From positions 2,654 through 41,877 of the forward strand of contig CAZYIM010000025.1 in the NCBI GenBank assembly GCA_964647565.1: 39,224 nucleotides of DNA. Direction: 5' to 3'. The position numbers and the translations under genes are program-made. The stretch comes from an uncultured Methanosarcinales archaeon. Its GTDB lineage: Archaea > Nanobdellota > Nanobdellia > Woesearchaeales > CAZYIM01. The notes below the pieces were generated by a model. That model ran no database searches. It was given only the letters and a program-made list of their open reading frames with translations, and was not told the origin of the DNA. This document shows, piece after piece, positions 1 to 27,894 of this stretch (positions within the stretch are counted from its first letter, which is position 1; each line of letters begins with the position of its first letter).

Positions 1-124
1 AAATTCTTGGAGTCTGATCACATAAAGGATGAGGACAGCCAGAATCTCCGGATACAACAATAACATTAAGAAATAATAAAATTATCGAACAAAAAAGTAT
101 GGAACATATTGTTTTGTATTTCAT
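1..124 (-). CDS. 5' part of a secreted protein, probably a further member of the dockerin/putative glycoside hydrolase array (truncated by window edge)
   Basis: Not in ORF track. Manual translation from ATG at 124: MKYKTICSILFCSIILLFLNVIVVSGDSGCPHPLCDQTPRI, open to base 1. Signal-peptide shape, and PRI matches the N-terminal YPRI/YPRL motif of the paralogs. Starts 7 nt after the preceding stop. Confidence 0.7.
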   Translation of the reverse strand, partial: MKYKTICSILFCSIILLFLNVIVVSGDSGCPHPLCDQTPRI

Positions 125-131
125 CTGAATT

Positions 132-2234
132 TTACAGTTTTCCCACAATTATTAGCAGATCGGATACATTCACTATACCATCACCATCCAGATCGTGCTC
201 TGATGTTCCAAAAGCCCTGACCAGCAACACAAGATCAAAAATATCGATCACATCGTCATCGTTTATATCTGCAGGATCATCATTATCGTTGCCATCCCCA
301 TTGCCAGTATCATCACCAGCACAACCAAGATGGGGTGTGCACAAAGTGGTCGGACATTCAGAAGTACTACATGTCCTTGTCTGCTGTACCATAGTGGAAG
401 GACAATCTCCACCACCACAGTCAGTATCTAATGTCCAGGAACCGCAATCAGTATCACAATTAACAGGAGTCTTGCATGTTCCCTTACAGCAGGTCGTTGG
501 ATAGCTGCAGTCAGAAGCAAAATAGTATATATTGCCTTCACAGGTCTGACCACTCTCACAACAGAAAGCACTCGAATCCCAATCAGAACAAGTTTTCCTC
601 TCTGGAGGCGGACCAACATCTCCTTCGCAGCTGTCTCCACTCATAGACCAGGAATTGAAATCATAAGTGCAGCTCTTTCCATGCTTTTGGACAGTCATCA
701 CATTATTGTTCCAGGTCACAATCGGACCATCAGAAGATACAGTCTCAATCCTTTTGACAGGCAGATTCAACACTGCAGAATCACTGGCACCAGAAGTGCT
801 GCCACTATCTCCAGATTTTGTAATCGTGACGCCCTTACTTGTAGTAAAGGACCCACTGCTCACTTGGGCATTTGCACTGACAGCATCCTTAAAAGCCTGG
901 AATGTTGGATAGTCCGCACCAATGACTGCTGCCTCTATAGCAGATACTTGTCCTGAAAGATAGATGGCAATCGCAGTATGGTCTTTTTTGTAGAAATGCC
1001 AGCCGCCATTGGAATCAGATTCATCAAATAGAGCAGCACCTTCATTCTCATCATACGCAGTCTGCGTACTTATATCAATGATGTGCAGGTTCGGCGCATA
1101 CTCTATCAACATGGCATTTTTGTATTGATAGCAGCCCCTGCCTATCTCCTGATAACATTCAGAATTAGAGCAACCTTCCTCAACAGTCGGCTTGTTGTCT
1201 ATCCACAATCTTATCAGCCCCTCTACGTCCATCATCGATGCCTGAAGAGAGCCACCCATAGTAAAATACTTGGTAACATATATCCATTTGCCGTCACCCC
1301 TTACATAGGTTGGATGGCCTGCAAGATTATTTTCCATATTAAAATGCCAATAGCTGTCTGGCTCATCATCCAGATTGCCGATATCAAATATCAAATCAGG
1401 CAAACGGTACGTACTGACCAAAGCAGTATAAAAGCGTCCCCTGCTGCTAAATGGCATGGAACCAATATCCCAATATATCCAGTGATAAATCTCAGGTCCT
1501 CCACTCCATATCGTACGGGCATAGGTCCTGCCTACATGGCCTCCATGCATATCCATACAGACATCAAGGACTGAATCCAATAAAATCAGATCGAGCATCA
1601 TCTTGGCTCTCTTTTTCATCTCAGGATCCTGTGCAAAATCATAAAGCGTGTAAAGCGAATCTACAAATGTCTTGGTATATTCTGAGTCCAGTTCACGAGT
1701 ATAGTCGCCTTCCTTGGCCAACTGATTGAAGGTGTCAAATAGCCAGCTCTTTGATTCGCTGGTAGATTCACCTCTCATTTCTGCTACAAGAAATCCTATA
1801 GTATGCAGCATCAACCTATTGTTCATAGTAAATCCTGAAATATCTGGTATCTTAAAATACTTCCAATTATTATTCATCCAATATAATTCGTCACTGACTT
1901 GATCAGGATATTGGAGATGTACACGAAGAAGATGTAACCTAGGAAGGAACCATCCCGCAGTCCACATGCCCTGGCCCCAGTCAGCAGGCCAATCTTTCTC
2001 AGGGATATTAGGATCAGGAGAACCATCATGTCCCCACTGTCTGATCTGGTAAGTGATGTACTCTTCTGTGTATTCATTCAGTGGATTCTCCAGATAAGCC
2101 CATATACCCAACTCATCAGAAAGTCCTTCTCCATAAGATACTATATACGCAGCTCTTTTCTCTTCAAACGTGGCAGCCATCACAGAACAAGATAGCAGGA
2201 TAAAAATGATACAGAAGATAACACCTCTTTTCAT
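132..2234 (-). CDS. Secreted protein: alpha-helical heparinase II/III- or polysaccharide lyase-like region (tentative), Cys-rich linker, C-terminal dockerin-like domain
   Basis: 703-aa ORF; start placed at MKRGV (2234) by similarity to sibling genes and TATA spacing. Signal peptide, motif ELDSEY...LYDFAQD...AKMMLDLIL, Cys-rich stretch, terminal DINDDDVIDIFDL...DLDGDGIVNVSDL. Confidence 0.65.
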   Translation of the reverse strand: MKRGVIFCIIFILLSCSVMAATFEEKRAAYIVSYGEGLSDELGIWAYLENPLNEYTEEYITYQIRQWGHDGSPDPNIPEKDWPADWGQGMWTAGWFLPRLHLLRVHLQYPDQVSDELYWMNNNWKYFKIPDISGFTMNNRLMLHTIGFLVAEMRGESTSESKSWLFDTFNQLAKEGDYTRELDSEYTKTFVDSLYTLYDFAQDPEMKKRAKMMLDLILLDSVLDVCMDMHGGHVGRTYARTIWSGGPEIYHWIYWDIGSMPFSSRGRFYTALVSTYRLPDLIFDIGNLDDEPDSYWHFNMENNLAGHPTYVRGDGKWIYVTKYFTMGGSLQASMMDVEGLIRLWIDNKPTVEEGCSNSECYQEIGRGCYQYKNAMLIEYAPNLHIIDISTQTAYDENEGAALFDESDSNGGWHFYKKDHTAIAIYLSGQVSAIEAAVIGADYPTFQAFKDAVSANAQVSSGSFTTSKGVTITKSGDSGSTSGASDSAVLNLPVKRIETVSSDGPIVTWNNNVMTVQKHGKSCTYDFNSWSMSGDSCEGDVGPPPERKTCSDWDSSAFCCESGQTCEGNIYYFASDCSYPTTCCKGTCKTPVNCDTDCGSWTLDTDCGGGDCPSTMVQQTRTCSTSECPTTLCTPHLGCAGDDTGNGDGNDNDDPADINDDDVIDIFDLVLLVRAFGTSEHDLDGDGIVNVSDLLIIVGKL

Positions 2235-2266
2235 AATAATCACTTATGAACTCCTAATTTAAATAA

Positions 2267-4174
2267 TTATAGTTTTTGAATGATCACAAGCAGATCCTGT
2301 ACATCAACAGTGCCGTCGCCAGTAAGGTCATACTCATAAGTGCCAAACGCCCTGACAAGCAAAACCAGGTCAAATATGTCAACAACTCGATCTTTATTAA
2401 GGTCAGCAACATTAAAATTATCACCACCATTTTCACCAGCGGTTTCATCTTGATATACAAATTTCATGCCATCAGCCTGCACAGTGCCGTCTGCCCCAGC
2501 AGCCTTTAGCTTGACATATCCGTCAGTGCCTTCATTGAAAGTAAAGGCGCCAAGTGAGTTCCACTTGCCATAATCCTTTGACTGGTCAATAGTTCCGGTC
2601 TCTATACCACCCGCATGCTTCAATTCATATGCAACATTTGATGCTTCCTGCTTGTCATCCAGATCTCCATGCCATTCAAAGACTTCATATTCACCTGCAA
2701 AACCTATAGTAGGTCTGTATATAGCTTGGTCAGAAGAACTCTTTGAGAATGCAACTGGAAACTGTTTAAGCATGAACCAGTCATATGGCTTGCAGTTGAA
2801 ACTCCATGTACTGTCTGCATCGCAGGTCTTCTCCCAATCCCCATTAAGCTCTGCAAGCTCTGACGCAGGCGAGGTTTCAGCCTCTCCATTGTCAATTATT
2901 ATGTCTGCGATTACTATCTGAGGAGTGTCTACAAGCAGGATAGAATCACCATATGCCCAATTAAAATCAGGGTGGGGCTTGCCCCATAAGGTTATCGAAT
3001 CAAACAATTCTCCATTATTATGTGCTGGATCCTGGCCACCTTGGAAACGGTGATAGGGTCCACCATAACCTGGAAGATCTTTTATGTCATCATCTGTGAT
3101 TGTCTTGTTCTCTCCTAATGGATTCATGATAAATGCGCCATGATCAAAGAACCTGACCCAGACACAGTCATAATCTCCTTTGCAAAATAGACCTTGAGGT
3201 GGTCCTTTTGGCCAACCAAAGTCCAAATCAAACTCATCATAATACTTGTTATAGTGATGCTCTCCGGCTCGATGCTCAGTAAAACTCATATACCCATCAC
3301 CCAGCATCATATATCCAAACAAATAACGCATGTCTTTAAAATCATTCTTGGACTCAGCTCGCATATCAGCCCAGAATATATGGGGTTCTGGAGCTGTCTC
3401 CATCCAGGGTTTGTATCTGTAACCATACATCCATCTGACACTAGTCGGGGATCTGCCTTTCTCAATCATGAGCCCGTTTGAATTCTCCCAGTTATGGTCG
3501 TGAAATATTCCTGAATTAATCAGAAATGCCTGGCCGTTCTTCTGTGCCTCTTCAAGAATAGGCCTTGCTGCCTTGGCTATGCCCGCCCTGAAGTGGTTCT
3601 TAAACCACAGCATCTTGGCGACATAACCCACAGCATCCAAGGGAATATGCTCATCATGATCATTCACTCCATTTCGATCAACATCTACAGGATTAATACC
3701 AAAAGGATGATCCCAAGCTCCCTGGCAGATAAAGCCATCCACTAAATCACCATCCCTTAACCTTTGAATGGTGTCCTGTGCAATATACTCATTGTATTTC
3801 TGACCAGTAAACTTGCCGCGGGTCGGCTCCTCACAAAAATCACTCAGATCTAGCATATTTCCGTAACCAGTCTCTACTTTATTTCCGTCAGGATCCTTGA
3901 GATACCATTCATCCGGAGCAGGATCATCAGTCATATGCCAAACATTCCAGTCTCTTGAGACAAAAAGAGCTGTTCTTGGATTAAGCTCACGTATTTTCTC
4001 AAGCCTGGCAGTCCCATATGTATGTACCAAATCAAACTGGGCATACCATTCTGCAGGTGCATGTCCAAAGTTGAAAAATGCAAGTCTGGGATATGAATGA
4101 TTAAAATCAAATGCCTGGCAAATAGGCAGGATTAAGAATATCATCAACAAAAGTAAAAAAATTTTTCTGTTCAT
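2267..4174 (-). CDS. Secreted putative glycoside hydrolase (GHL15-like TIM barrel) + golvesin/Xly CBM-like domain + dockerin-like domain
   Basis: Signal peptide; YPRL; DG...; NGLMIE; YYDEFDLDFGWP; VWVRFFDHG; IIIDN...GEYEVFEWH...DQ...GKWNSLG...ADGMKFV; terminal dockerin repeats. Start overlaps the upstream stop (ATGA at 4171-4174). Confidence 0.75.
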   Translation of the reverse strand: MNRKIFLLLLMIFLILPICQAFDFNHSYPRLAFFNFGHAPAEWYAQFDLVHTYGTARLEKIRELNPRTALFVSRDWNVWHMTDDPAPDEWYLKDPDGNKVETGYGNMLDLSDFCEEPTRGKFTGQKYNEYIAQDTIQRLRDGDLVDGFICQGAWDHPFGINPVDVDRNGVNDHDEHIPLDAVGYVAKMLWFKNHFRAGIAKAARPILEEAQKNGQAFLINSGIFHDHNWENSNGLMIEKGRSPTSVRWMYGYRYKPWMETAPEPHIFWADMRAESKNDFKDMRYLFGYMMLGDGYMSFTEHRAGEHHYNKYYDEFDLDFGWPKGPPQGLFCKGDYDCVWVRFFDHGAFIMNPLGENKTITDDDIKDLPGYGGPYHRFQGGQDPAHNNGELFDSITLWGKPHPDFNWAYGDSILLVDTPQIVIADIIIDNGEAETSPASELAELNGDWEKTCDADSTWSFNCKPYDWFMLKQFPVAFSKSSSDQAIYRPTIGFAGEYEVFEWHGDLDDKQEASNVAYELKHAGGIETGTIDQSKDYGKWNSLGAFTFNEGTDGYVKLKAAGADGTVQADGMKFVYQDETAGENGGDNFNVADLNKDRVVDIFDLVLLVRAFGTYEYDLTGDGTVDVQDLLVIIQKL

Positions 4175-6087
4175 AGTAGCTTTACAATAATAATAAGGTC
4201 TTTGACATTGACGGTACTGTCATTAGTTAGATCATGTCGAGAAGTGCCAAAAGATTGGATGAGGATAATCAAATCCTCTATGTCCACAACTCTATCAAGA
4301 TTCAGATCGCCAAATATTGGCTGTGGCGGCGGAGGCGAACCATCCTTAAATACAAACTTGACAGCATCAGCAACAACAACACCATCTGCACCTGATGCTA
4401 AAAGCCTGAGATGGCCAGATGTTCCCTTAGTGAAGTTGAAAGTGCCGAGCTTGTTCCACTTTCCATGATTCTGCCTCTGGTTGATGGTGCCTGTTTTTGT
4501 ACCTCCCACATGCTTGAGCTCATATCTTACATTAGTGGCCTCAATTGAATTCTGTGTGTTTCCATGCCATTCATATACATCATACTCTCCGGCAACTCCC
4601 ATGTTAGGAGTAAAGGTCGCTTGAGCGCTTCCTGGCGTTGCAGTTGCAAACTTGTGTACTCCAATCCAGGTTGCGTGGCTGACAACATAAGCATCCTGAC
4701 CCCAGTCTTCCTGAGTCCAACCACCTGTGAGCTCGACTACACTGGTTGAAGGACTGGTTCCATAGTCAACATTATCAATAATAATGTCAGCAACCACTGT
4801 CTTCTCTTCTTTAAGCAATATAATACCGTCACCAAAAAGATTGACAGGATCATCAGTTATGCCTTGTCCCCATAAGTTAACACTATCAAACGATGCACCA
4901 GTATTGAAGTCAGGGTCCTGGCTTCCTCTGAAGCGATAATATGGACCCGCATAGCCTGTCAGGGATTTTAAATCATCATCGCCAACAGTTACAGATTTGC
5001 CCTTGGCATTATGTATAGATACTCCATTGTCAAAGAACCTGATCCAGACACAATAGTTATAATAACCGACACGCTCGCATAAGATGCTCTGGCTGTCTGT
5101 TTTTGGATAACCCAGGTTCAGGTCAAACTCATCATACCATCTGAAAACATAGTGTTCTGTACCTGCGGCCTCCATATCAAAATATGCATTACCTAACATC
5201 GTAAATGTAAGCAGGAATCTTAACAATCTGAAGTTGTTCTTGGGATTGGCAGGAGCGTAGGTCTTATCATTATCCTCTGTTCCCTCAATCAAAGACATTG
5301 CAGGTTTTCTGCCATGCTCTATCCAGTAATCATATCTTTCTTTGGCATAGCTCCAGCCAGTCTGCATGCCACCCATGTGCTCTGCCATAAAACCATTGGT
5401 CTTGTCCAGGCCATAGGAGTGCAGGATACCTGAATTCATGACTATAATCTTATCCTCAGGTATCAAGTTTCTGAGATTACTGAGTATTATCTCCTGGCCG
5501 CCAGACCATTGCTCTTTAATCCAGTCTCTGCCATGCTGATCATTATCATTCTGCCCATCCCTGTCAAGATCAATATCACCCCTTGCATCACCCCAAAGAG
5601 TCTCCCAGGAACCCTGACTCATCACACCATCAAAGACAGTAAAGTCAACATAGGCTGCAAGCACTTCAGGAAAACGCTGGTTGAACTTTTTCCCGTCAAC
5701 GTCAGGACAAAAATTAGTGATATCCGCCAGAGTGCAGGAGCCACCACACATACCCACAGTACGGTTATCAGAATGACGGGCAAGCCATTGGTCTGGAAAG
5801 GGATCTATAAGGCTACCCTCGATCTCAAACTGTGCGCCTGTATCCCAGTCAGCAGACCACAAAATAATAGCATCTGGATTCAGGCTCTTGATATCCCTTG
5901 CCAGCTGGACATCAGAATGCGGCATGATGACCATGTCATAATCAGCATACCATTCTGTTACTGCACCTCCGAAGGTCTGCACGCCGATACGAGGATAGCT
6001 ATGACCCTTAACTGCATCCCAACTTCCAGCAGAGACCATATTCAGAAGAAAAGTGAATACTAATAAAAACAGGACACCTCTTTTCAT
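4171..6087 (-). CDS. Secreted putative glycoside hydrolase + golvesin/Xly CBM-like + dockerin-like domain (paralog)
   Basis: Same motif order as neighbours: YPRI, NGFMAE, WYDEFDLNLGYP, IIIDN, ADAVKFV, dockerin. Confidence 0.75.
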   Translation of the reverse strand: MKRGVLFLLVFTFLLNMVSAGSWDAVKGHSYPRIGVQTFGGAVTEWYADYDMVIMPHSDVQLARDIKSLNPDAIILWSADWDTGAQFEIEGSLIDPFPDQWLARHSDNRTVGMCGGSCTLADITNFCPDVDGKKFNQRFPEVLAAYVDFTVFDGVMSQGSWETLWGDARGDIDLDRDGQNDNDQHGRDWIKEQWSGGQEIILSNLRNLIPEDKIIVMNSGILHSYGLDKTNGFMAEHMGGMQTGWSYAKERYDYWIEHGRKPAMSLIEGTEDNDKTYAPANPKNNFRLLRFLLTFTMLGNAYFDMEAAGTEHYVFRWYDEFDLNLGYPKTDSQSILCERVGYYNYCVWIRFFDNGVSIHNAKGKSVTVGDDDLKSLTGYAGPYYRFRGSQDPDFNTGASFDSVNLWGQGITDDPVNLFGDGIILLKEEKTVVADIIIDNVDYGTSPSTSVVELTGGWTQEDWGQDAYVVSHATWIGVHKFATATPGSAQATFTPNMGVAGEYDVYEWHGNTQNSIEATNVRYELKHVGGTKTGTINQRQNHGKWNKLGTFNFTKGTSGHLRLLASGADGVVVADAVKFVFKDGSPPPPQPIFGDLNLDRVVDIEDLIILIQSFGTSRHDLTNDSTVNVKDLIIIVKLL

Positions 6088-6131
6088 ATAATCTTTTCTT
6101 AGAAGAACTAATATAAAAAATTATAGTTTTT
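6073..6131 (-). promoter_or_regulatory. Repeated junction module (stop, TATA box, TTCTT-N2-AAGAA palindrome, ATG); second copy at 8125-8183
   Basis: 57 of 59 nt identical between the two copies by manual alignment; TTTTTTATAT ends 23 nt before the ATG. Confidence 0.75.
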
Positions 6132-8139
6132 TAATAATGACCAAAATATCCTGGACATCAACAGCGCCATCTTCTGTCAAATCATACTGTGAAGTGCCAA
6201 AAGCCCTGACAAGCAAGACAAGATCCATAATATCAACAACACCATCCCGGTTCAGATCCCCAAGCAAGGACTGGGGAGGTGGAGTATCGGAAACACTGCC
6301 TGTATTGACAAACTTGATTGCATCTGCCACTATAAAACCATTGGTGTTACTAAGTTCCACAAATCCAGAAGTGCCTTTGTCAAAGTTATACTTTCCAAGG
6401 CTATTCCATTGCCCAGTATTATCCCTCTGATCAATGGTACCGGTTGCAGCCCCACTGGAATGATGTATCTCATAACCAATTGTAGTTGCCCCTGTCTTTT
6501 GAGGGTGCCATTCAAACACCTCATACTCACCTGCCAGACCAATCGAGGGCCTATATATAGCACTCGCCCCTGTATAAGAAGTGAATGCAATGTCGTGGGT
6601 GTTTCCAACTCTCTTATACTGGATCAGTCCAGGATTGTCACACCCCTCTGTCTTTGGGTTGTTGATCTCACATACCTGATCCCATATGTTCTCACCAACA
6701 TAAGAATATCTACAACCCCAAGTCCAAGGATCAGAACATTCATTGTAATCCTGGCAGCACTGCATATGCCAATCACCCTTTAGCTCGGCCATCTGGCTTC
6801 CAGCTGATGTGAATGCTCTGGTATGGTCAATTATAATATCTGTCACAATCTTCAAAGGCTGCTTAAGTAATATGAGTCCATCTCCAAAATGTCTCGAGGA
6901 AGTACCCTCATCCTGTTCTTTTCTTCCATGAAGATCAAAACTAGAAAATTCCTGTCCATTGTTAACAGAATAATCCTGCCCACCCTCGAAGTGATAGTAA
7001 GGACCATCATAACCCTGAAGACCTTGAAGCATTGAAATGCTTATCGTACGGGCTTCACCCTGAGGATTGGTTATTGCAACACCATTGTTGAAAAACCTCA
7101 CAAAAACTCCATTTGAAAGGCGCTGATAAACACCAGTTGGATAACCAAGATCAATCTCAAACTCATCATACCATTCATTATAATAATGATCCCTTATATC
7201 TTTTTGATCAGTCAAAGAATATCCTACTTCCTCACAATCAAAATACCCATCTCCCATCAAAGTCATTGTCAATAGGTATCTCATGTCCTTGAAATCATGT
7301 TTGTCAGTAATCAGGCCATTGATCAGAACCATGCTTGGCTCCTTCCTACTATTGACAACAGAGTTATACTTCTGTATAAATCCCTGCCCCCAATACCTAG
7401 GTACCGAAGCATATTCATCAATAAAACCATTTGCAATACCTGCTCCCCAGTCCTCTAAAGTACCGGTATTTATGAGTATGGGACGGTTGCCGAGGTTATT
7501 GTTCTCAAGAGCCTGCCTCATATTAGAGAGCAGTTTATCACATCCTGCCACAAAAGTCTGTTCAATCCAATCTCCACCATGCTGGTCCAAGTCGTTCTGA
7601 CCGTCCCTATCCAGATCCACATCCTGCGATCCAAACTGGTTGCCGCTTAATGCAATCAGATCTCCTGCATAACGATGAATGCCGTCAGTTGCCACACCAT
7701 CAACATAGTTAAAATCAAATGAATCAATATAGCTCTGCGCCAGCCATTCATTGAATTTCATGTTGCCATGAGCTGGACTGGGCCTACAGTAATCCGTCGG
7801 ATCAGCATAGTAGCCATCAGGATCATACAGCTTTATATGATCCTCATTGGATGTACGAAGACGCCATTCCTCTGGACAACCACCATAGAAATCATAGATA
7901 CGCCATTCCTTTGTACCCAGTATGATTGTATTAGGATTTATGGCCTTTATCTCTTGAGGAAGTGATGATGCAGCATTATCAAAACTTATATCCACCAAAT
8001 CATAACGCGCATATAATTCCGGTGTTGCACCACCCCATTGAAAGGATGCAATCCTTGGATAAGAGGGATTGTAATCAGTTGCCTGAACATAGAACACTAA
8101 TAATACAAATAGAAAAACTAACATGACACCTCTTTTCAT
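6121..8139 (-). CDS. Secreted putative glycoside hydrolase + golvesin/Xly CBM-like + dockerin-like domain (paralog)
   Basis: YPRI, DGVATDG, NGFIDE, WYDEFEIDLGYP, IIIDH, ADAIKFV, dockerin. Confidence 0.75.
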   Translation of the reverse strand: MKRGVMLVFLFVLLVFYVQATDYNPSYPRIASFQWGGATPELYARYDLVDISFDNAASSLPQEIKAINPNTIILGTKEWRIYDFYGGCPEEWRLRTSNEDHIKLYDPDGYYADPTDYCRPSPAHGNMKFNEWLAQSYIDSFDFNYVDGVATDGIHRYAGDLIALSGNQFGSQDVDLDRDGQNDLDQHGGDWIEQTFVAGCDKLLSNMRQALENNNLGNRPILINTGTLEDWGAGIANGFIDEYASVPRYWGQGFIQKYNSVVNSRKEPSMVLINGLITDKHDFKDMRYLLTMTLMGDGYFDCEEVGYSLTDQKDIRDHYYNEWYDEFEIDLGYPTGVYQRLSNGVFVRFFNNGVAITNPQGEARTISISMLQGLQGYDGPYYHFEGGQDYSVNNGQEFSSFDLHGRKEQDEGTSSRHFGDGLILLKQPLKIVTDIIIDHTRAFTSAGSQMAELKGDWHMQCCQDYNECSDPWTWGCRYSYVGENIWDQVCEINNPKTEGCDNPGLIQYKRVGNTHDIAFTSYTGASAIYRPSIGLAGEYEVFEWHPQKTGATTIGYEIHHSSGAATGTIDQRDNTGQWNSLGKYNFDKGTSGFVELSNTNGFIVADAIKFVNTGSVSDTPPPQSLLGDLNRDGVVDIMDLVLLVRAFGTSQYDLTEDGAVDVQDILVIIKKL

Positions 8140-8183
8140 ATATCCTTTTCTTAGAAGAACTAATATAAAAAATTATAGTTTTT
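8125..8183 (-). promoter_or_regulatory. Second copy of the repeated junction/promoter module
   Basis: Near-identical to 6073-6131. Confidence 0.75.
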
Positions 8184-10137
8184 GAATGATAATAAGTAAA
8201 TCCTGGACATCAACAGTACCATCACTAGTAAGATCATACTCAGAAGTGCCAAAAGCCCTAACCAACAACACAAGATCTAATATATCCACAACTCCATCCT
8301 CATTCAGATCAGCAGCAACAAAGCCGCTACCCTCATCATCTACATACACAAACTTAACAGCATCTGCAACCACAGCACCATTGGCACCTGAAGCTTTCAG
8401 TTTTACAAACCCGGTTGTTCCTTTTTCAAAACTGAAGATACCAAGCGAATTCCATTTACCCTGAATGGCGCTCTGATCAATCAATCCTGTTTCAACACCA
8501 TTTGCATGCTTCAACTCATACTCAACATTTGATGCTTCCTGTTTATCCTTAATATTTCCATGCCACTCAAAAACCTCATAATCCCCTGCTATGCTGATGG
8601 TCGGCCTAAAAACAGCATTTCCTGAATCCTCAGTTGTATAAGCTGTCAGGTAGAGTTTGTCCTTTAGATTCATAGCGCAATGAGCAACAGCATAGTGGCT
8701 ACCACCCTCGCATGAATGTTGCCAATTTCCAGAAAACTCTGCTTTCCTTGAAGCGGGGGATGTACCGCTGTTATGATCATCTATGATTATTTCTGAAACA
8801 ACTGTTTGAGGTATCTTTACCAACACAATACCATCACCACTTTTATAATCCAATTTATTTTCTTTAAAACTATAGCCTTTCAGATCAACAAAATTAAACA
8901 ATTCTCCATTATTGAAATCAGAATCCTGACCGCCTCTAAACCTATAGTATGGCCCATCATAGCCATCAAGTTCCTTCAACTGTTCATCAGTCACAGTCAC
9001 ATCATGGCCATTAGCATTCAGGATTGCAGCACCCTGATCAAAGAACCTTGCCCATATCTCACTCTGACCAATCCTCTGCATCTCAGAGGTCGGGCATCCT
9101 ACATCAAGATCATACTCATCATAGTATTTGTTGTGCAGGTGTTCATATCTTCCACCACCATCTATCAAGAGCAGCGGTTCATACTGGAAATAGAATCCCC
9201 ACATCATTGTCTGAGTCAGGCCATATCGGATATAGGGAAAAAACTCCCATTCAGGATTCGGATTGTCTGGATGGCCCCAGCTTGCCTGATACAGGAATAA
9301 GGAAATATGTGGTTGGGCTGTTCTCTTGATGTTATGATCCATATTTCGTCGCTTCCAGTCAAAATCATGATCGGGGCCTGAATATTCCCAAATCAATCCA
9401 TTAGGTACGGTGATGTCTGCTAACCCCCTAAACCCTGCACCAGTATTTATTATCATGTATTTATCAGGTCCAATCCGATCTCTGACATTCTGCATCAAAG
9501 TGATAACTCCATTATTCCAATGTTCAGTGACCCAGGGAATATGCGTATGGTACTCATCAAAAAAATCCTCAGTTGGATGTTCATCCCAGTCACTGACTCC
9601 ATTACGATTAATGTCAATGTTCTTGGGAGTGCGCCATTTCATGTGCTCACCTGCATAGAGACCATCAGTTGCAATCCCGTCATAAAGATCCATATTCATC
9701 TCATCAAACAAGAAATCAACAAAGAATTCATTGAATTTCTTTCCATCATATAAAGGACAGACATCAGCAAAATTGCCAGCCATCTGGCCTACTGCAGGAT
9801 TTAAACCAACATACCACCCATATGTTTCACCTTTTGATGTCATCAGCCTGTGAGGCTCAGGTATTTTTTCATTCATATGTGCAGCGGCATTCCAGTCCTC
9901 AGTCCCGATTATTTTTATTGCTGGATTCAACTGTTTGATCTTCTCTAGGTTTTCGCTATTGATAAGAGGCCTTCCACTTGGCCTACCTATAACTATGTCA
10001 AACCTGGACCACCATTCAACTGCGCCGCCAGGCCACTGGAAATTACTAATCCTCGGATAATGATGGCCACATTCTTGCGCAGAAATAATAGGTGTTAAAA
10101 CCAACAGGACCAAGAACAGCAAGATACACCTCTTCAT
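8173..10137 (-). CDS. Secreted putative glycoside hydrolase + golvesin/Xly CBM-like + dockerin-like domain (paralog)
   Basis: YPRI, DGIATDG, NGLIWE, YYDEYDLDVGCP, IIIDD, ADAVKFV, dockerin. Start placed at MKRCI (10137), 22 nt after TTTTTTATAT. Confidence 0.75.
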   Translation of the reverse strand: MKRCILLFLVLLVLTPIISAQECGHHYPRISNFQWPGGAVEWWSRFDIVIGRPSGRPLINSENLEKIKQLNPAIKIIGTEDWNAAAHMNEKIPEPHRLMTSKGETYGWYVGLNPAVGQMAGNFADVCPLYDGKKFNEFFVDFLFDEMNMDLYDGIATDGLYAGEHMKWRTPKNIDINRNGVSDWDEHPTEDFFDEYHTHIPWVTEHWNNGVITLMQNVRDRIGPDKYMIINTGAGFRGLADITVPNGLIWEYSGPDHDFDWKRRNMDHNIKRTAQPHISLFLYQASWGHPDNPNPEWEFFPYIRYGLTQTMMWGFYFQYEPLLLIDGGGRYEHLHNKYYDEYDLDVGCPTSEMQRIGQSEIWARFFDQGAAILNANGHDVTVTDEQLKELDGYDGPYYRFRGGQDSDFNNGELFNFVDLKGYSFKENKLDYKSGDGIVLVKIPQTVVSEIIIDDHNSGTSPASRKAEFSGNWQHSCEGGSHYAVAHCAMNLKDKLYLTAYTTEDSGNAVFRPTISIAGDYEVFEWHGNIKDKQEASNVEYELKHANGVETGLIDQSAIQGKWNSLGIFSFEKGTTGFVKLKASGANGAVVADAVKFVYVDDEGSGFVAADLNEDGVVDILDLVLLVRAFGTSEYDLTSDGTVDVQDLLIIIQKL

Positions 10138-10169
10138 ATAAGTGATATGAATAGAGCTCATATAAAAAA

Positions 10170-13085
10170 CTATAGATTGTTGATGACCACAAGTAAATCC
10201 TTGACATCAACAGTACCATCACCAGTAAGATCATGTTCCGATGTACCAAATGCTCGGATGACAAGGATTAGATCCTGGATATCAACAACACCATCTTTGC
10301 TTACATCTGCAATTTGGTCTTTACTCTTGATCAATATTGACGCGGCCCTTACAAAATAGCCTTGTGTTAATCCTCCTAAATTTGAATCAAACCTAAAACC
10401 GAGTGTGTTGCTTCCACTATCCAGGTTTGATAAGGGGATCTCATGACAAAATTCCATTTCGGTATTATCTCCTGTCACAGAGATAGGATTCCAACTGCCG
10501 AAATTTACCTTGAAACTCCCTTCTTGATCAGAGTCCACATCAAACACCTTGAACTTGATTATTGCAGATTCAACACTAGAAATTTCAATACCCCTAACAG
10601 TGCAAGTTCTTAATGTTCCGGGAGGTTGACTTACATTCAAGGGCATAGGGGTGCATGGAATGGTCCTATCATAAGATACACCTGTTGGACAATTGGTTGA
10701 AACATCTATACAAGTTCCTATTATGCAGCAGAGTTCACCATGATCAGATGAATTGATGAAACGGCCTCCAACACAACTCTGGCCAGATGAACATGGTTGA
10801 CCATTCTTAGAGGAGCAAGTACTATCTTCACCTCCACCATCCTGGCCACAATCAGAGATAGACACACTGAGTGATCCAGCATTATCTTTAGCAAAAGAGT
10901 CTGTGATATTAAACTTGAATTTTGCGTTCTTTCCAGGCAGATTCACAGAATATATGTGGTTCGCATTATATGCGCCCCAATCGATGTTAGCCCCATCAAT
11001 TGATAGGTCAAGATAGTGAGGAACAGGATGCACGTTTTCACCCTCACCTTTATGCCAACCCGGATGTCCATGGCTTGTCAATTCAGACCATTCAGCATCA
11101 GCAATGCCATCGGGCTGTGCAGGGAACCAGTATTGATAAGTACCTGATGCAGTTATCTTATAAGTTTTAGAACTCGAATAGGTTTTAGTGGTTTGGCCCC
11201 CCCTTCCATCTACATAGACCGTCACTTGCTCGAGTTGCAAACATTCCAAATCCCCTGTATTGGTATAGAGCTGGCTATGCGCGGTATTGAAATTATTATC
11301 AATTGCCAAGATCTTATACTGCAGATATTGATTAGGTATGACGCCAGAAAATGTGCTGCCTGTCGGAGTCATCTTAATATATTTTTGTATTCCGCCCTCT
11401 TTATATAATATATACGCATATTGTGCTCCTGAAATAGTTGATGTCACTGTCAGGGTTGTACCTGAAATCTGGCTTGTGACACTGGCAATACTAGGAGCTG
11501 TAAAGTCTGTCAATGCCAGGCTATCTTGCTGGGCATACTGGGCCCAAACATTATAATATTCAAAGATGTGATTGAATCTTGAATCGATGGTATCTCCGAT
11601 GATAACAATCAGATCACGACTAATAGTGCCGACCAGATGATGGTTGACCAATCCAGCTTCTTCTATTCCAGGAAGCTTTTTAAAATTATATCCCATCAAT
11701 CGTGCTCCGACTGCGTCAAGGGCAACCGGATCAATACTGGCCAGGGCTATCTTCATATCATAGGGATCGCTGCCTGCTGCATTCTTCTCATTGGCCACTA
11801 TTCCATCCAGAACATTGAAATATTTTCTTTGTTTGGTAGATCTTACACTACCTTGGGAATCTGCATAAAGAACTATCCTATTTAGATCCAATATGCTTCT
11901 CCAAAGCACGTCATTTCCAAAGGTGACATCATAAGATCCTCGAGCATCACCTTTCTTGTTATGGGGTATCCTGACAAAACCTGCATCACTGTTATCATAG
12001 GTAGAAGCCACTGTTATACCAACAAGATTCTTTAAGGCAAGAGTCACGATATTAGTCCAATGATTTTTCATCTTAGGCACATTGATGATCACATCTGAAT
12101 CCAGGACATACTCGCTTATTGCATACCAACCCATGGCTTGACCATTAGGATTGATCCCATATGAATCTGCTGTCTTGTAATACTGATGGTTGTATAATGT
12201 CACATCATAATAGCCCATATCATAATCAGTGTAACTTGAACCTGCAAAAGCACTGTTCTGGTCAAGGTTGATCCATCGCCATTTCTTATTAGTGCCCCTA
12301 TCGTTAAGATTCACAATCCTGATTTCGATATTGGCATGTTTTGTATCTAAAGCTTCGACCATCGCAACATATTTGGTATCCAGAAGATATTTCTCACCAT
12401 TGGTAAATCCAGGGCTACCATCGCCAACCCATATCTTAGTTGCACCTGCTGTAACCGCCATGTCTATCAAAGGCCTGACAACTGACGGATGACTATATGC
12501 CGCACCACTGGCAGCAACCATGTTAGGTTTTATAAGCACTGTATCGCCTTGGCTAATCAAGTCTGATAAAGGGTCTGATTGGGTTCCCAGTGCTGTCCCA
12601 ACAACCACATCCCATATAAAATAATACACAGGATTGTCTCTTGCATCATAAGGAGGAGTTGTGCCGTAGCTGACAGAAGCATCATAGTTAAAACTCACAA
12701 TCGGATCTTCTGGTGAGAGTGGATTAAGGCATATATATGCAGGAATAGTCCTGCTGCCCAAAACTCTCAACTGTTCTTGTTGGTAGTCTGAATAAAGCCT
12801 AAAAGAGCATATTAATAATATAGGTATAAGCAATATCAAGAAAAAAGTCAATGGTTTTCCTATCATGAAGCGCCAGATGTGTTTCCTTTTTTTGTAAATG
12901 ACAGCTGGAAGCAGTCCAAGAAAAGAGCTCATCTGGAATACCGCCGCCTTCTGGCAGGGATATGTTATTCTGGTGGGTCTTGGTATGACCCTAAACAAGA
13001 ACCAAGCCAGGCTCAAAATTGTAAATACAAGATAGCTATGCTTGAACTTTCCAAGAAAACCTAGTTTATTATGTTTCTTGCACAT
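10170..13085 (-). CDS. DUF362 domain protein with N-terminal membrane segments, Ig-like/lectin-like beta domains and C-terminal dockerin-like domain
   Basis: DUF362 motifs VLIKPNMV, SHPSVV, VGDGS, INVPKMKNH...TLALKNLVG, LDGI, DPVALDAVGARLMG; two N-terminal hydrophobic segments; terminal DVSKDGVVDIQDL...DLTGDGTVDVKDL. Confidence 0.8.
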   Translation of the reverse strand: MCKKHNKLGFLGKFKHSYLVFTILSLAWFLFRVIPRPTRITYPCQKAAVFQMSSFLGLLPAVIYKKRKHIWRFMIGKPLTFFLILLIPILLICSFRLYSDYQQEQLRVLGSRTIPAYICLNPLSPEDPIVSFNYDASVSYGTTPPYDARDNPVYYFIWDVVVGTALGTQSDPLSDLISQGDTVLIKPNMVAASGAAYSHPSVVRPLIDMAVTAGATKIWVGDGSPGFTNGEKYLLDTKYVAMVEALDTKHANIEIRIVNLNDRGTNKKWRWINLDQNSAFAGSSYTDYDMGYYDVTLYNHQYYKTADSYGINPNGQAMGWYAISEYVLDSDVIINVPKMKNHWTNIVTLALKNLVGITVASTYDNSDAGFVRIPHNKKGDARGSYDVTFGNDVLWRSILDLNRIVLYADSQGSVRSTKQRKYFNVLDGIVANEKNAAGSDPYDMKIALASIDPVALDAVGARLMGYNFKKLPGIEEAGLVNHHLVGTISRDLIVIIGDTIDSRFNHIFEYYNVWAQYAQQDSLALTDFTAPSIASVTSQISGTTLTVTSTISGAQYAYILYKEGGIQKYIKMTPTGSTFSGVIPNQYLQYKILAIDNNFNTAHSQLYTNTGDLECLQLEQVTVYVDGRGGQTTKTYSSSKTYKITASGTYQYWFPAQPDGIADAEWSELTSHGHPGWHKGEGENVHPVPHYLDLSIDGANIDWGAYNANHIYSVNLPGKNAKFKFNITDSFAKDNAGSLSVSISDCGQDGGGEDSTCSSKNGQPCSSGQSCVGGRFINSSDHGELCCIIGTCIDVSTNCPTGVSYDRTIPCTPMPLNVSQPPGTLRTCTVRGIEISSVESAIIKFKVFDVDSDQEGSFKVNFGSWNPISVTGDNTEMEFCHEIPLSNLDSGSNTLGFRFDSNLGGLTQGYFVRAASILIKSKDQIADVSKDGVVDIQDLILVIRAFGTSEHDLTGDGTVDVKDLLVVINNL

Positions 13086-14788: not shown

Positions 14789-17647
14789 ATGGAACCAGAA
14801 AACAAATTAATCGAAGAAAGACTCAGAAAACTCAAGGAAATAAGAGAGATGGGAGTCAACCCGTATCCTTATTCATATAAACAAACACATCATGCTAAAG
14901 AAATCCTAGACAAGTTCGACAAAAAACTCAAAAAAGAGCAGACCACCAAGACCAAGGTCTCTGTTGCAGGCAGGATCATAACCCTTAGACGGATGGGAAG
15001 AGCTACTTTCATGCATCTCCAGGATGTGACAGGCAAGATCCAGCTATACTTAAGGGAAGATGATATCGGCAAAAAGAATTACAAATTCTTGAAAAAACTA
15101 GATATTGGCGATCATATCGGGGCAAAAGGCACTGTATTCAAGACAAAGACGGGCGAGACGTCTGTATATGTAAAGAAATGCAGTTTGTTATCCAAAACAT
15201 TAAGACCTTTGCCAGAGAAGTTCCACGGTCTTGCAGACCAGGAACTGAAGTATAGGATGAGGTATTTGGACCTTATTATAAACCAGGATGTCAAAGACAG
15301 GTTTATCATGCGGACCAAGGTCATCCAATATGTAAGGGAATTCCTAGACAAGCTCAATTTTATTGAAGTTGAAACCCCTGTCTTGCAGGTCATCTATGGA
15401 GGCACCAATGCAAAGCCTTTCAAGACTCACATCAATGCCTATAACATGCCTATGTACCTCAGGGTAGCACCAGAACTTTATCTGAAAAGACTGGTGGTTG
15501 GCGGCTTTGAAAGAGTGTATGAGATAGCAAGAAATTTTAGGAATGAGGGTGTTGACCAGACTCATAATCCTGAGTTCACAATGATCGAATGGTATGAAGC
15601 CTATGCCGACTACGATGTGATGATGGACCGAACAGAGGATATGTATAAGTTCATAGCCAAGAAACTCTTTGGCAAGGCAGAGATCGTAGTAGGCAAGAAA
15701 AAGATCAACCTGGCCAAGAAATGGCCGCGGATGCCCCTGGTTAAAGCCATCAAGAAATATGTTCATATCGATGTCATGAAAATGAGTGAGAAAGAACTTG
15801 CCCAATTCTGTGAAAAGAATGGTGTTGAAGTAAGAGATGGAACCAGCAAGGGCCAACTGATATTTGGAATATTTGACAAATTAGTATGTGATCATCTGAT
15901 CGATCCCATCTGGATAATAGACTATCCAAAAGAGGTCTCACCTCTTTCAAAGGTGCATAGGAAGGACGATTCCTTTGTAGAAAGATTCGAATGCTACATA
16001 GGCGGAAAAGAGATCGGTGATGGATGGTCAGAACTGATTGACCCGATAGGGCAAAGGCAAAGGTTTGAGCATGAGCAGGCAGAGATGCGGGCAGGCCAAG
16101 AGGATGCCCATCCAATGGATGAAGATTTCATCACCTGCCTCGAATATGGAATGCCTCCACTTGGAGGGATCGGCATAGGTATTGATCGATTAGTCATGCT
16201 TTTTACCAACCACTGGTCTATAAGGGATATCATGTTCTTCCCCATCATGAAACCTGAAGGCGGAGTGCAGACAAAAAATGATGCCAAACCAAAAGAATGT
16301 CTTTTCCTACTGGATGAAACTGTCAAGAAAAAATTTCCTGGCCTGAAAATAGGTGTTGCAGTAATCAAGGATGTCACAATAAAAAAAGAAGATAAAGAGC
16401 TTGAAAAAGAGAAAAAAAAGATAGTCAGCGAGATACAAAAGAAAGCAAAGGAACTGCTGAAAAGCTCAAAAAGCCTTAAGGCATATGAGGATCTATATAG
16501 AAAAACCGGTGTTGACTTCACCAAGAGGAAACCTTCTCCAACAGCTCTGCTAAAAAGGCTATCAGAAGGTAAGGATCTCTACAAGATCAACACCTTGGTT
16601 GATGTTGTCAATCTCTGTGTCATGAAGAACCAGATGTCAATGGGCGTCTTTAACTTCGACAAATTTAAACTGCCTGTTGTGCTGAGATTTGCCAAGAAAG
16701 GCGAGAAATTCCAGCCACTAGGAGAAAAGGAGTTCAAGGATCTTGATGAAGGTGAGATCATCTATGCAGACCAGGATATGGTTACTACCAGGGATTTAAA
16801 TTACCGGGATTGTGATAAATCCAAGATCACTGAAAAAGTCAAGAACATCATGTTCTTTGTAGACGGCACAGAAGCCAATACAGAAGAAGAGCTAAAAGAG
16901 ATCTTTGAAGATGCGATTGAACAGATAACAAGGTTTGTGGGCGGCACAGTTGAAAAGGTCATGTTCTCTTTTAAGAAAGCAGAAACTCCTAAGAAAAAAT
17001 CAGTCTCAAAGATGAAAACACATCCGATCTTCTGGGCTGATTTCTATGTTGGAGAGTTCGATGCCAAGGTTGTTAAGATTGAAGGCGACGAAGTAGTGCT
17101 TGACAAGACCTGTTTCTACGGAGAATCCGGCGGCCAGGCAGGAGACATCGGAACCCTGAACAAGATCAAAGTCATCAATACTCTCAACAATAAAAAAGAG
17201 ATAATCCATGTTTTAGCAAAGAAGCCAAGCTTCAAGACTGGTGACTCAGTGCATGGCAAGATAGACTGGGAAAAAAGGATCAACACCATGAGACTGCATT
17301 CAGCCAGCCATATAACAGAACATTTCCTGTTCAAGGAATTCGGAGAGCTGAAACGAATCGGCTCTGCTGTCAACGATGTCAAAGACAGGAGTGATTTTCT
17401 AAGTGATGAGAGTCTTGGCGGCGACAAGCTGAAAAAAGTTGAGGATGCCAGCAACAAATTCATAGCAGGCAAAAAGGATATCAAGATAATTGTTGATGAT
17501 GCAGGCTACAGGCTCTGGAAGTGTGAAGATATCGAAGACGGTTGTGGCGGAACTCACGTCAATAACACCAAAGAGATAGGCAAGATCAAGTTAAAGCGAG
17601 TCAACCTCGGCAAAGGCAAAGAACGGATTGAGACATATCTGTGTTGA
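14789..17647 (+). CDS. lysS: Class II lysyl-tRNA synthetase fused to a B3/4 domain and an AlaX-like editing domain
   Basis: LysRS-II motifs FIEVETP, YLRVAPELYLKRL, RNFRNEG...HNPEFT, YGMPPLGGIGIGIDRL; then B3/4 motifs PSPTALLKR, INTLVD, GEIIYAD; then AlaX motifs FYGESGGQ, HSASH, CGGTH. Confidence 0.92.
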   Translation: MEPENKLIEERLRKLKEIREMGVNPYPYSYKQTHHAKEILDKFDKKLKKEQTTKTKVSVAGRIITLRRMGRATFMHLQDVTGKIQLYLREDDIGKKNYKFLKKLDIGDHIGAKGTVFKTKTGETSVYVKKCSLLSKTLRPLPEKFHGLADQELKYRMRYLDLIINQDVKDRFIMRTKVIQYVREFLDKLNFIEVETPVLQVIYGGTNAKPFKTHINAYNMPMYLRVAPELYLKRLVVGGFERVYEIARNFRNEGVDQTHNPEFTMIEWYEAYADYDVMMDRTEDMYKFIAKKLFGKAEIVVGKKKINLAKKWPRMPLVKAIKKYVHIDVMKMSEKELAQFCEKNGVEVRDGTSKGQLIFGIFDKLVCDHLIDPIWIIDYPKEVSPLSKVHRKDDSFVERFECYIGGKEIGDGWSELIDPIGQRQRFEHEQAEMRAGQEDAHPMDEDFITCLEYGMPPLGGIGIGIDRLVMLFTNHWSIRDIMFFPIMKPEGGVQTKNDAKPKECLFLLDETVKKKFPGLKIGVAVIKDVTIKKEDKELEKEKKKIVSEIQKKAKELLKSSKSLKAYEDLYRKTGVDFTKRKPSPTALLKRLSEGKDLYKINTLVDVVNLCVMKNQMSMGVFNFDKFKLPVVLRFAKKGEKFQPLGEKEFKDLDEGEIIYADQDMVTTRDLNYRDCDKSKITEKVKNIMFFVDGTEANTEEELKEIFEDAIEQITRFVGGTVEKVMFSFKKAETPKKKSVSKMKTHPIFWADFYVGEFDAKVVKIEGDEVVLDKTCFYGESGGQAGDIGTLNKIKVINTLNNKKEIIHVLAKKPSFKTGDSVHGKIDWEKRINTMRLHSASHITEHFLFKEFGELKRIGSAVNDVKDRSDFLSDESLGGDKLKKVEDASNKFIAGKKDIKIIVDDAGYRLWKCEDIEDGCGGTHVNNTKEIGKIKLKRVNLGKGKERIETYLC

Positions 17648-27741: not shown

Positions 27742-27894
27742 ATGAAAATAAAAGTCTCAGTCTCAATGGAAGAAGAACTTTTTGAAAAGGTCAAATTGCA
27801 AGCAAAAGATACCACTTTTCGTAATAAGAGCCACCTTATAGAGGTTGCTGTTGAATCCTTTTTAAAGAGGGTTGAAGATGGAAGAACTGCATAA
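27742..27894 (+). CDS. Ribbon-helix-helix (CopG/NikR-like) DNA-binding protein, 50 aa
   Basis: Not in ORF track. MKIKVSVSMEEELFEKVKLQAKDTTFRNKSHLIEVAVESFLKRVEDGRTA: alternating beta strand followed by the F-R-N-K-S-x-L-I-x-x-A-V helix pattern. Confidence 0.85.
   Translation: MKIKVSVSMEEELFEKVKLQAKDTTFRNKSHLIEVAVESFLKRVEDGRTA

Follow-up and report, generated by a model that had tools for sequence, protein, structure and literature searches.

Cohesin-dockerin assembly is the textbook organisation of plant-fibre-degrading enzymes in some bacteria. In a dockerin, an acidic calcium loop of 12 residues and the helix after it form one segment, and two such segments stand in tandem. In bacterial cellulosomes and related complexes such as the Ruminococcus bromii amylosome (PMC4611034), dockerins with two calcium loops stand at the C termini of the enzymes, one tag is common to several enzyme families and binding modules, and the cohesins reside on separate anchored proteins and are far outnumbered by the dockerins. 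Archaeal cohesin and dockerin modules are known as well; according to excerpts of PMC9012536, binding has been verified for some pairs, the archaea covered by previous surveys lacked multi-cohesin scaffoldins and enzyme-loaded scaffolds, and anaerobic methanotrophic (ANME) archaea encode up to five cohesins per protein, with dockerins mainly on transporter substrate-binding proteins. Here we analysed a stretch of 39,224 nucleotides (the window) from contig CAZYIM010000025.1 (positions 2,654 to 41,877, forward strand; hereafter C25) of assembly GCA_964647565.1, an archaeon placed in the order Woesearchaeales. Its first 13 kb carry consecutive genes whose products end in the same dockerin tail. 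We put at roughly two in three the probability that these genes belong to an enzyme-loaded, non-cellulosomal cohesin-dockerin system for surface display in a DPANN-type archaeon.

Six co-oriented minus-strand open reading frames (ORFs) of 703, 635, 638, 672, 662 and 971 residues occupy this region, spaced -4 to 33 nt apart as called. That six consecutive genes share one tail, as a preliminary description had proposed, is confirmed, and the tail aligns ungapped at 45-46 residues. The array and its tails are as follows:

1..124, minus strand: 5' end of a seventh tagged gene, with predicted signal peptide; runs off the window edge and continues on C25
132..2243, minus strand: w1, 703 residues; predicted signal peptide, modelled helical toroid plus beta-sandwich core, Cys-rich linker, dockerin
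2267..4174, minus strand: w2, 635 residues; predicted signal peptide, modelled GHL15 TIM barrel, Golvesin_C binding module, dockerin
4171..6087, minus strand: w3, 638 residues; architecture as w2 (GHL15 27.9 bits, Golvesin_C 82.4 bits)
6121..8139, minus strand: w4, 672 residues; architecture as w2 (GHL15 36.0, Golvesin_C 81.2, Dockerin_1 26.9 bits)
8173..10161, minus strand: w5, 662 residues; w2-w4 family by BLASTP (Golvesin_C 74.1, Dockerin_1 28.6 bits)
10170..13085, minus strand: w6, 971 residues; N-terminal membrane segments, DUF362 (102.3 bits), a module of about 225 residues, dockerin (Dockerin_1 24.5 bits)
132-269, minus strand: tail of w1 with the dockerin (45 codons and the stop codon)
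2267-2404, 4171-4308, 6121-6258, 8173-8310 and 10170-10307, minus strand: dockerin tails of w2-w6

The tagged genes come from three unrelated families, as first described: w2-w5 are GHL15+Golvesin_C paralogues, pairwise 34-39% identical, w6 is a DUF362 protein and w1 has no Pfam family. The likely start codons of w1 and w5 are the ATGs at 2234 and 10137. By hydropathy scan, a single N-terminal hydrophobic segment was found in five of the six, matching the five signal peptides predicted earlier, and w6 has at least two such segments. The additional module of w6 is common to two GHL15 proteins of another contig, C47 (58-60% identity over 227-247 residues).

The seventh gene suspected at the edge is real: it starts at window position 124 and leaves the window, and its core, encoded outside the window on C25, is of the transglutaminase-core type (Transglut_core, 55.9 bits). 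Its dockerin lies in a shifted frame, with ORFs 1175-2719 and 961-1221 of C25 overlapping, and a 38-base run of Ns (C25:2616-2653) stands beside it; the gene is broken, or the assembly is at fault here.

The tail is recognisable as a dockerin. Solved dockerins were the first matches of the tail profile (2y3n_B, E = 1.4e-9), and 6kg9 aligned over its full length. Pfam's Dockerin_1 (PF00404, gathering cut-off 22.9 bits) was exceeded in 11 of the 16 tagged proteins scanned, 8 of 10 elsewhere and 3 of 6 in the window; the hidden Markov model search proposed for the window genes thus succeeded for half of them, two falling below the cut-off and w3 being unlisted. A six-frame search of the genome with Dockerin_1 recovered 17 of 18 tails at E<=0.01, the w3 tail again being missed. 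Among the window tails it diverges most from the rest; against a profile of all 18 copies in the genome it scores 77-79 bits. The 18 tails align without gaps over 50 columns, with nine invariant residues and 72% mean column identity. Asp residues D6, D10, D17, D31, D35 and D42 are invariant and N8 and D14 nearly so, and each of the 18 copies retains all calcium-ligand positions. In the AlphaFold2 (AF2) model of w1, two helices span tail residues 668-676 and 693-702. Together with the confidence of the tail when modelled beside a cohesin (pLDDT 91), the solved-dockerin matches and kept calcium ligands support the earlier proposal that the tail would fold as a dockerin. The same description had called the linker between the two loops unusually short. 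It is indeed short, eight residues less than in 6kg9, but not unusual, since three unrelated database proteins (P0140, P0144 and P0148) share the 45-residue dockerin format.

Tail identity is 56-87% among the six window genes and averages 65% over all 153 pairs. On exactly 18 of 10,014 genome ORFs the 18-tail profile scored 72-91 bits, and the next-best ORF reached 12.5 bits, a gap that rules against chance likeness. Where tail residues are identical, their codons agree as well in 48% of cases, compared with 44% expected, so synonymous sites are saturated and the conservation acts on the protein; recent gene conversion was therefore rejected as the source of tail similarity. The tail is thus an old module held by protein-level selection and borne by cores of separate ancestry.

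A search for further copies of the tag, as suggested earlier, brought the total to 18, six of them in the window. All lie at the extreme C terminus, in three arrays at contig ends: the start of C25, all of C47 and the end of a third contig, C6. A loose pattern search of all ORFs gave 17 tails, with matches ending seven residues before the stop; the 18th is a variant on a PL8 gene. The profile census comprised these 18 tails and three cohesin modules, with nothing in between. A hydrophobic segment opens 16 of the 16 intact N termini. Eight of the 18 tagged proteins have GHL15+Golvesin_C cores, three belong to the w1 family, two are PL8 lyases (one with malectin) and one is a chondroitinase-B-like beta-helix; the others comprise one DUF362 protein, one with the transglutaminase core, one without a family and one with a weak pectate-lyase signal (15 bits, under the cut-off). 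None of the 18 was assigned to a cellulase family by Pfam.

The contig ends bear on how many tagged genes exist. The gene cut at the start of C25 is an N-terminal piece (aligning with w1 132-227) and that cut at the end of C47 a C-terminal piece (w1 256-703), so that the two would fit one split gene; no overlap between the pieces was found, and no full-length form occurs among the database matches, of which four longer ones are just 30-36% identical. C6 and C47 have an exact 55-nt overlap at their ends, inside a repeated Cys-rich module. Their adjacency was rejected as an explanation of this overlap: all 627 residues of the gene at the C47 edge recur unchanged (100% identity) in a database protein, P0132, which then extends by 247 residues and reaches a different dockerin of its own. 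The overlap thus lies within a repeat, and at least one further tagged gene end is missing from the assembly. There are probably at least 19 tagged genes, with the contig order being our inference. The Cys-rich linker module stands between core and tail in several tagged proteins, and the assembler broke the locus there; the same module is present in homologues from an Aenigmatarchaeota metagenome-assembled genome (MAG) and a Kuenenbacteria MAG.

No cohesin was visible in the window. Searching the genome for one, we found two adjacent cohesin genes on C6, at 65.7 and 49.2 bits (Cohesin PF00963, gathering cut-off 24.1 bits). They stand immediately downstream of five tagged genes, four complete and one partial, and share their orientation. 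The first encodes a 168-residue protein with a signal ending in what we take to be a lipobox-like motif, followed by one cohesin (65.7 bits), whose best solved relatives are cellulosomal ScaB cohesins (3l8q, 8.2e-14). The second, according to sequence reading and a hydropathy scan, encodes an 876-residue type-I membrane protein with, in order, a signal, a cohesin (49.2 bits), an fn3 domain, a second cohesin, MopE-type Cys-rich repeats, a Pro-rich stretch, one transmembrane helix and a Lys-rich cytoplasmic tail of about 160 residues. Its second cohesin reaches 18 bits by Pfam and is 27% identical to the first module (E = 3e-5). A profile of the three modules found no further cohesin in the assembly. 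Past the cohesin genes, C6 encodes TrmB, a PEP-utilising domain and proteins of unknown function, none related to the system; in all, other genes cover 76 kb of this contig. The suggestion that one standard tag is appended to different enzymes for a common scaffold is therefore supported at the level of gene content, as predicted anchored cohesins are encoded beside tagged genes.

Cohesin-dockerin complexes have been solved many times. We modelled one of the three cohesins (residues 30-168 of the 168-residue protein) with two calcium ions and the tail alignment. The three runs gave ipSAE values of 0.60, 0.62 and 0.60, compared with 0.24 for the best control, with at least 95% contact agreement and pLDDT of 91 for the partner and 93 for the other chain. 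Of 157 solved complexes, 116 reached the ipSAE mark, as did 2 of 215 mismatched pairs; just 18 of the 157, together with the two mismatched pairs that passed, did so with values no higher than 0.60. Because this type of pair is well represented among solved structures, the pass may reflect likeness rather than affinity, and the tag-cohesin structure prediction proposed earlier lends weak support to binding.

A mechanism consistent with these parts can be outlined. At least 18, and probably 19 or more, exported proteins would each consist of a signal peptide, a core, an optional Cys- or Pro-rich linker and a C-terminal 45-residue dockerin. After export, the dockerin would fold round two calcium ions and plug into one of the three genome-encoded cohesin modules, two of them held by the 876-residue membrane protein and one by the lipoprotein-like 168-residue protein. 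The outcome would be an exchangeable kit of polysaccharide-cleaving enzymes on the cell surface. Its substrates are proposed to be acidic or sulfated polysaccharides, not cellulose, because the cores include GH168-like barrels, PL8, chondroitinase-B-like and heparinase/chondroitinase-like folds; the polymers might come from a host, a biofilm or the water.

The label 'cellulosome-like' fits this system in architecture, but not in content: no cellulase family was named, and there are at most two cohesins per protein. There is no multi-cohesin scaffoldin with a carbohydrate-binding module (CBM), and Pfam named no dockerin-borne cellulases or hemicellulases. Unlike cellulosomes, the system belongs to an archaeon, carries polysaccharide lyases and GHL15 barrels instead of cellulases, has no long scaffoldin and no substrate-binding module on the cohesin proteins, and would be anchored through a transmembrane helix and a lipobox-like signal rather than through domains of the S-layer homology (SLH) type or sortase. 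It resembles Archaeoglobus fulgidus and ANME archaea in having Pfam-type cohesin and dockerin modules; unlike the ANME case described in excerpts of PMC9012536, its tails stand mostly on polysaccharide-active cores, in tandem arrays beside cohesin genes.

GHL15 (PF14885) exceeded its 27-bit cut-off in two of the four window paralogues, at 27.9 and 36.0 bits, and reached 23.5 bits in a third; w5 was unlisted. For Golvesin_C, the match is to the module at the C terminus of a solved xanthan lyase from Paenibacillus, 6f2p (4.3e-23). The AF2 model of w2 (62 sequences; pLDDT 90, pTM 0.86) contains a TIM barrel. Its nearest solved folds by Foldseek are the GH168 endo-1,3-fucanases (E = 2e-10 to 1e-6; target TM 0.54-0.60 at 10-15% identity), and 6f2p was also found. 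D313 and E314 are invariant in 62 sequences. The cores would thus be TIM barrels that resemble GH168 fucanases in fold, and are candidate glycoside hydrolases.

An unrooted tree of 64 GHL15+Golvesin_C proteins (594 columns; IQ-TREE quick mode, LG+G4) included eight copies from this genome, 55 of 60 complete relatives (<=1000 residues) and L040; five near-duplicates (L043, L064, L075, L104 and L106) were omitted. The eight copies do not form a group: the tree requires seven label changes, of which well-supported branches force at least six, and shuffled labels did as well in 154 of 500 trials. Just two copies are sisters. Each of the remaining copies has its own bacterial neighbours, proteins from MAGs of KSB1, Patescibacteria, a Cytophagia-labelled group and others, and most of these neighbours have no dockerin. 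In-situ duplication was accordingly rejected as the origin of the eight genes. Scattering among bacterial homologues indicates one tail on cores of separate ancestry, and the tree, being unrooted, gives no direction of transfer.

The w1 family comprises 222 of 1.84 billion representatives at E<=1e-3, 99 of them at E<=1e-10. The AF2 model of w1 shows a helical domain followed by a beta-sandwich (pLDDT 78.8), with chondroitinase AC 1cb8 as the best Foldseek match (E = 1.9e-3). In a VIA comparison, uronate lyases and dermatan-sulfate epimerase filled most of the top 50 rows, with Z scores of 5.6-8.2, a middling range, over 336-400 aligned residues at a root-mean-square deviation of 5-6 A. These models are a lead, not proof, that the w1 family is lyase-like, with a toroid plus beta-sandwich of the PL8/PL12/PL17 type. 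In a Saccharibacteria-labelled MAG (L109), a 3050-residue ORF matches the GHL15 family and ends in a w1-like C-terminal core segment, a fusion that hints at a common substrate for the two families.

The expectation that the cores would prove carbohydrate-linked is mostly borne out by GHL15, PL8, chondroitinase B, Golvesin_C and malectin, but not by DUF362 and the transglutaminase core. An atlas look-up with the DUF362 part of w6 returned only DUF362 clusters, at scores of 0.77-0.79, below the trust level. DUF362 belongs to the same Pfam clan as LarA racemases (excerpts of PMC11770544). Excerpts of PMC5742341 describe DUF362 with a CBM and dockerin in gut metagenomes, where its function is not known. 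Those proteins resemble w6, which joins DUF362, a putative binding module and a dockerin; unlike w6, they are bacterial and carry CBM9.

The genes of the arrays are joined by similar spacers, mostly 31-33 nt long when the likely start codons are used, and their opening letters form a TATA-like run rich in T and A, at a distance of about 25-33 nt from the start codon. One form recurs at three junctions with 0-2 mismatches:

6088..6120, minus strand: 33-nt intergenic cassette, with near-identical copies at 8140-8172 and C47:13722-13754

At up to seven mismatches it has four matches in the genome, all inside arrays. Genes of different families that follow near-identical cassettes begin with codons for one and the same peptide, MKRGV. 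Under archaeal promoter geometry, such spacing of a TATA-like run fits a promoter for each gene and leaderless mRNA. The cassettes could be promoters for leaderless mRNAs, or junctions homogenised by recombination. Gene conversion was rejected for the tails only, and the cassettes remain candidates for recombination.

Several findings weigh against a cohesin-based display system. For window positions 2267-10161, a look-up of RNA data sets containing the sequence gave none. The census sets three cohesin modules against at least 18 dockerins, so most enzymes could not dock simultaneously, and support for binding from the model is weak. Pfam found no CBM on the cohesin proteins of the genome, only fn3 and MopE repeats. 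Among 331 candidates from 5.8 billion proteins, the 168-residue cohesin protein had no near-length relative but itself, so conservation of the pairing is not checkable. The window contig and the cohesin contig are linked by inference and not by the assembly. Neither DUF362 nor the transglutaminase core counts among the known glycan enzymes. Four of the five dockerin-richest genomes of the same order had no cohesin at E<=0.001, indicating that dockerins in this lineage often occur without a detectable cohesin.

The wider order contains related arrangements. Of 301 genomes of the order, 56 have Dockerin_1 at E<=1e-4; leaving out the unpublished G276, the count is 55 of 300. The source genome has the most matches (14), followed by genomes with 11, 11 and 9. 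Cohesin at E<=1e-5 was found in 5 of 41 genomes. In G002, a dockerin protein is directly followed by a protein with CBM96, cohesin and MopE. G163 (1.2 Mb, 99% complete) has tandem dockerin-bearing polysaccharide lyases and three cohesin matches; its array (C8:1-18000) encodes PF14099, PL14 and beta-helix lyases, with dockerins that are N-terminal or internal, not C-terminal.

The genome is archaeal by its small-subunit (SSU) rRNA (1405 bits) and a Pth2 equivalog; the assembly holds 2.68 Mb in 86 contigs, with 86.9% completeness and 1.85% contamination. The 40 same-order genomes searched span 0.6-2.1 Mb. The 'DPANN-like' assignment made earlier agrees with these small sizes, but not with the size of this assembly. 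These figures bear on a different purpose for the same complex, which could serve attack on, or remodelling of, a host envelope or capsule and not the harvest of free polysaccharide. Small genomes are typical of host-dependent archaea, a protein with a transglutaminase core (cysteine-protease-like) bears the same tail, GHL15 and w1 homologues with dockerin-like tails occur with small cohesins in small-genome Patescibacteria, and host-glycan targeting has been speculated for such proteins in excerpts of PMC10633639. However, 2.68 Mb at that completeness exceeds every listed same-order genome and argues against extreme host dependence, the closest core homologues are found in free-living polysaccharide degraders (KSB1, Cytophagia-labelled and Calditrichota MAGs), and no host is known. 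We regard a role in host attack as unlikely, at about one chance in four by our judgement of this evidence.

Another possibility is that the tails are true dockerins that work without the cohesins of this genome, binding another surface (a host envelope, S-layer or glycan) or stabilising protein ends through calcium, a role that has been put forward for many dockerins outside cellulosomes. The excess of dockerins over cohesins, both in this genome and across the order, speaks for it, as does the single cohesin-bearing genome among the five dockerin-rich ones checked; adhesion has also been proposed for dockerin proteins of small-celled bacteria (excerpts of PMC10066038 and PMC10633639). It does not account for the position of the genome's only cohesin genes, directly after tagged genes and in the same orientation. 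In addition, the strong protein-level constraint on the tail across unrelated cores fits a single shared partner, and the model, for all its limited weight, places the tail on the cohesin well over controls. We consider a cohesin-free role improbable. That the arrays are bacterial DNA mis-binned or mis-joined with an archaeal genome is scarcely credible, for although all GHL15 paralogues have bacterial nearest relatives and array GC is 41-42% compared with a genome mean of 38.4%, this offset amounts to some 1.6 standard deviations of the spread among contigs, the window contig runs unbroken into 26 kb with TrmB and an archaeal-type Pth2 (over its equivalog cut-off), C6 likewise carries TrmB among its other genes, the TATA-like run of the cassettes would stand at archaeal promoter spacing, and dockerin-tagged lyase arrays recur in other archaeal genomes of the order.

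Comparable modules are known from small-genome bacteria. Excerpts of PMC9123182, PMC10633639 and PMC10066038 report cohesin and dockerin modules in bacteria of the Candidate Phyla Radiation (CPR) and in Omnitrophota, including expression of cohesin and dockerin genes in Shapirobacterales (PMC9123182) and an essential dockerin protein in a saccharibacterium (PMC10633639). Like this archaeon, Patescibacteria have small genomes, are probably surface-attached and combine few cohesins with dockerin-tagged glycan-active proteins, including homologous GHL15+Golvesin_C and w1 cores. Unlike it, they are bacterial, their tail is longer with a conserved Trp-Gly and Cys, and no 18-gene expansion was seen in the genomes examined. 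Two Patescibacteria-type genomes of 0.9 Mb encode GHL15 and w1 core homologues with this longer dockerin-like tail of another type. Their GHL15 proteins end in a dockerin or dockerin-like tail, one of which reaches the Dockerin_1 cut-off, and each genome has a small cohesin ORF of 218-229 residues.

A more far-reaching version of the display reading, which we hold tentatively and at less than even odds, is a 'lyasome': a membrane-anchored cohesin platform for about 20 enzymes that act on acidic or sulfated polysaccharides, whose cores would have been acquired separately from different bacteria and each refitted with the dockerin, promoter cassette and signal peptide of the archaeal lineage. 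If so, a small-genome archaeon would have become a saccharolytic specialist through modular tag grafting, with a genome larger than any other in its order, and Patescibacteria would have come to the same strategy in parallel.

Full-text searches for a cohesin-dockerin system in DPANN archaea or Woesearchaeota turned up no paper describing one. According to excerpts of PMC9012536, such modules occur in archaea, though they are not known there as parts of an enzyme-loaded system, and the full parts list is present here in an archaeon of a small-genome order. Should surface display be correct, it would give these archaea a concrete route to feed on, or attack, complex acidic polysaccharides. The locus shows a single tag on enzyme cores of separate ancestry. 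The compact 45-residue dockerin and small cohesin offer parts for protein engineering, and the GHL15 and w1 families, both uncharacterised, are candidates for new glycan activities.

Sequencing runs from the studies with the best DNA matches were labelled seawater metagenome. Two further genes of the window lie outside the array. At 27872-31855 on the plus strand, a 1327-residue ORF without a Pfam or NCBIfam match stands near a prepilin-peptidase-like gene and several family-less small ORFs. At 14789-17647, also on the plus strand, a 952-residue fusion protein comprises a lysine--tRNA ligase of class II (685 bits by NCBIfam), a B3_4 domain and an editing domain for alanyl-tRNA that is AlaXM-like (153 bits, under the model's cut-off).

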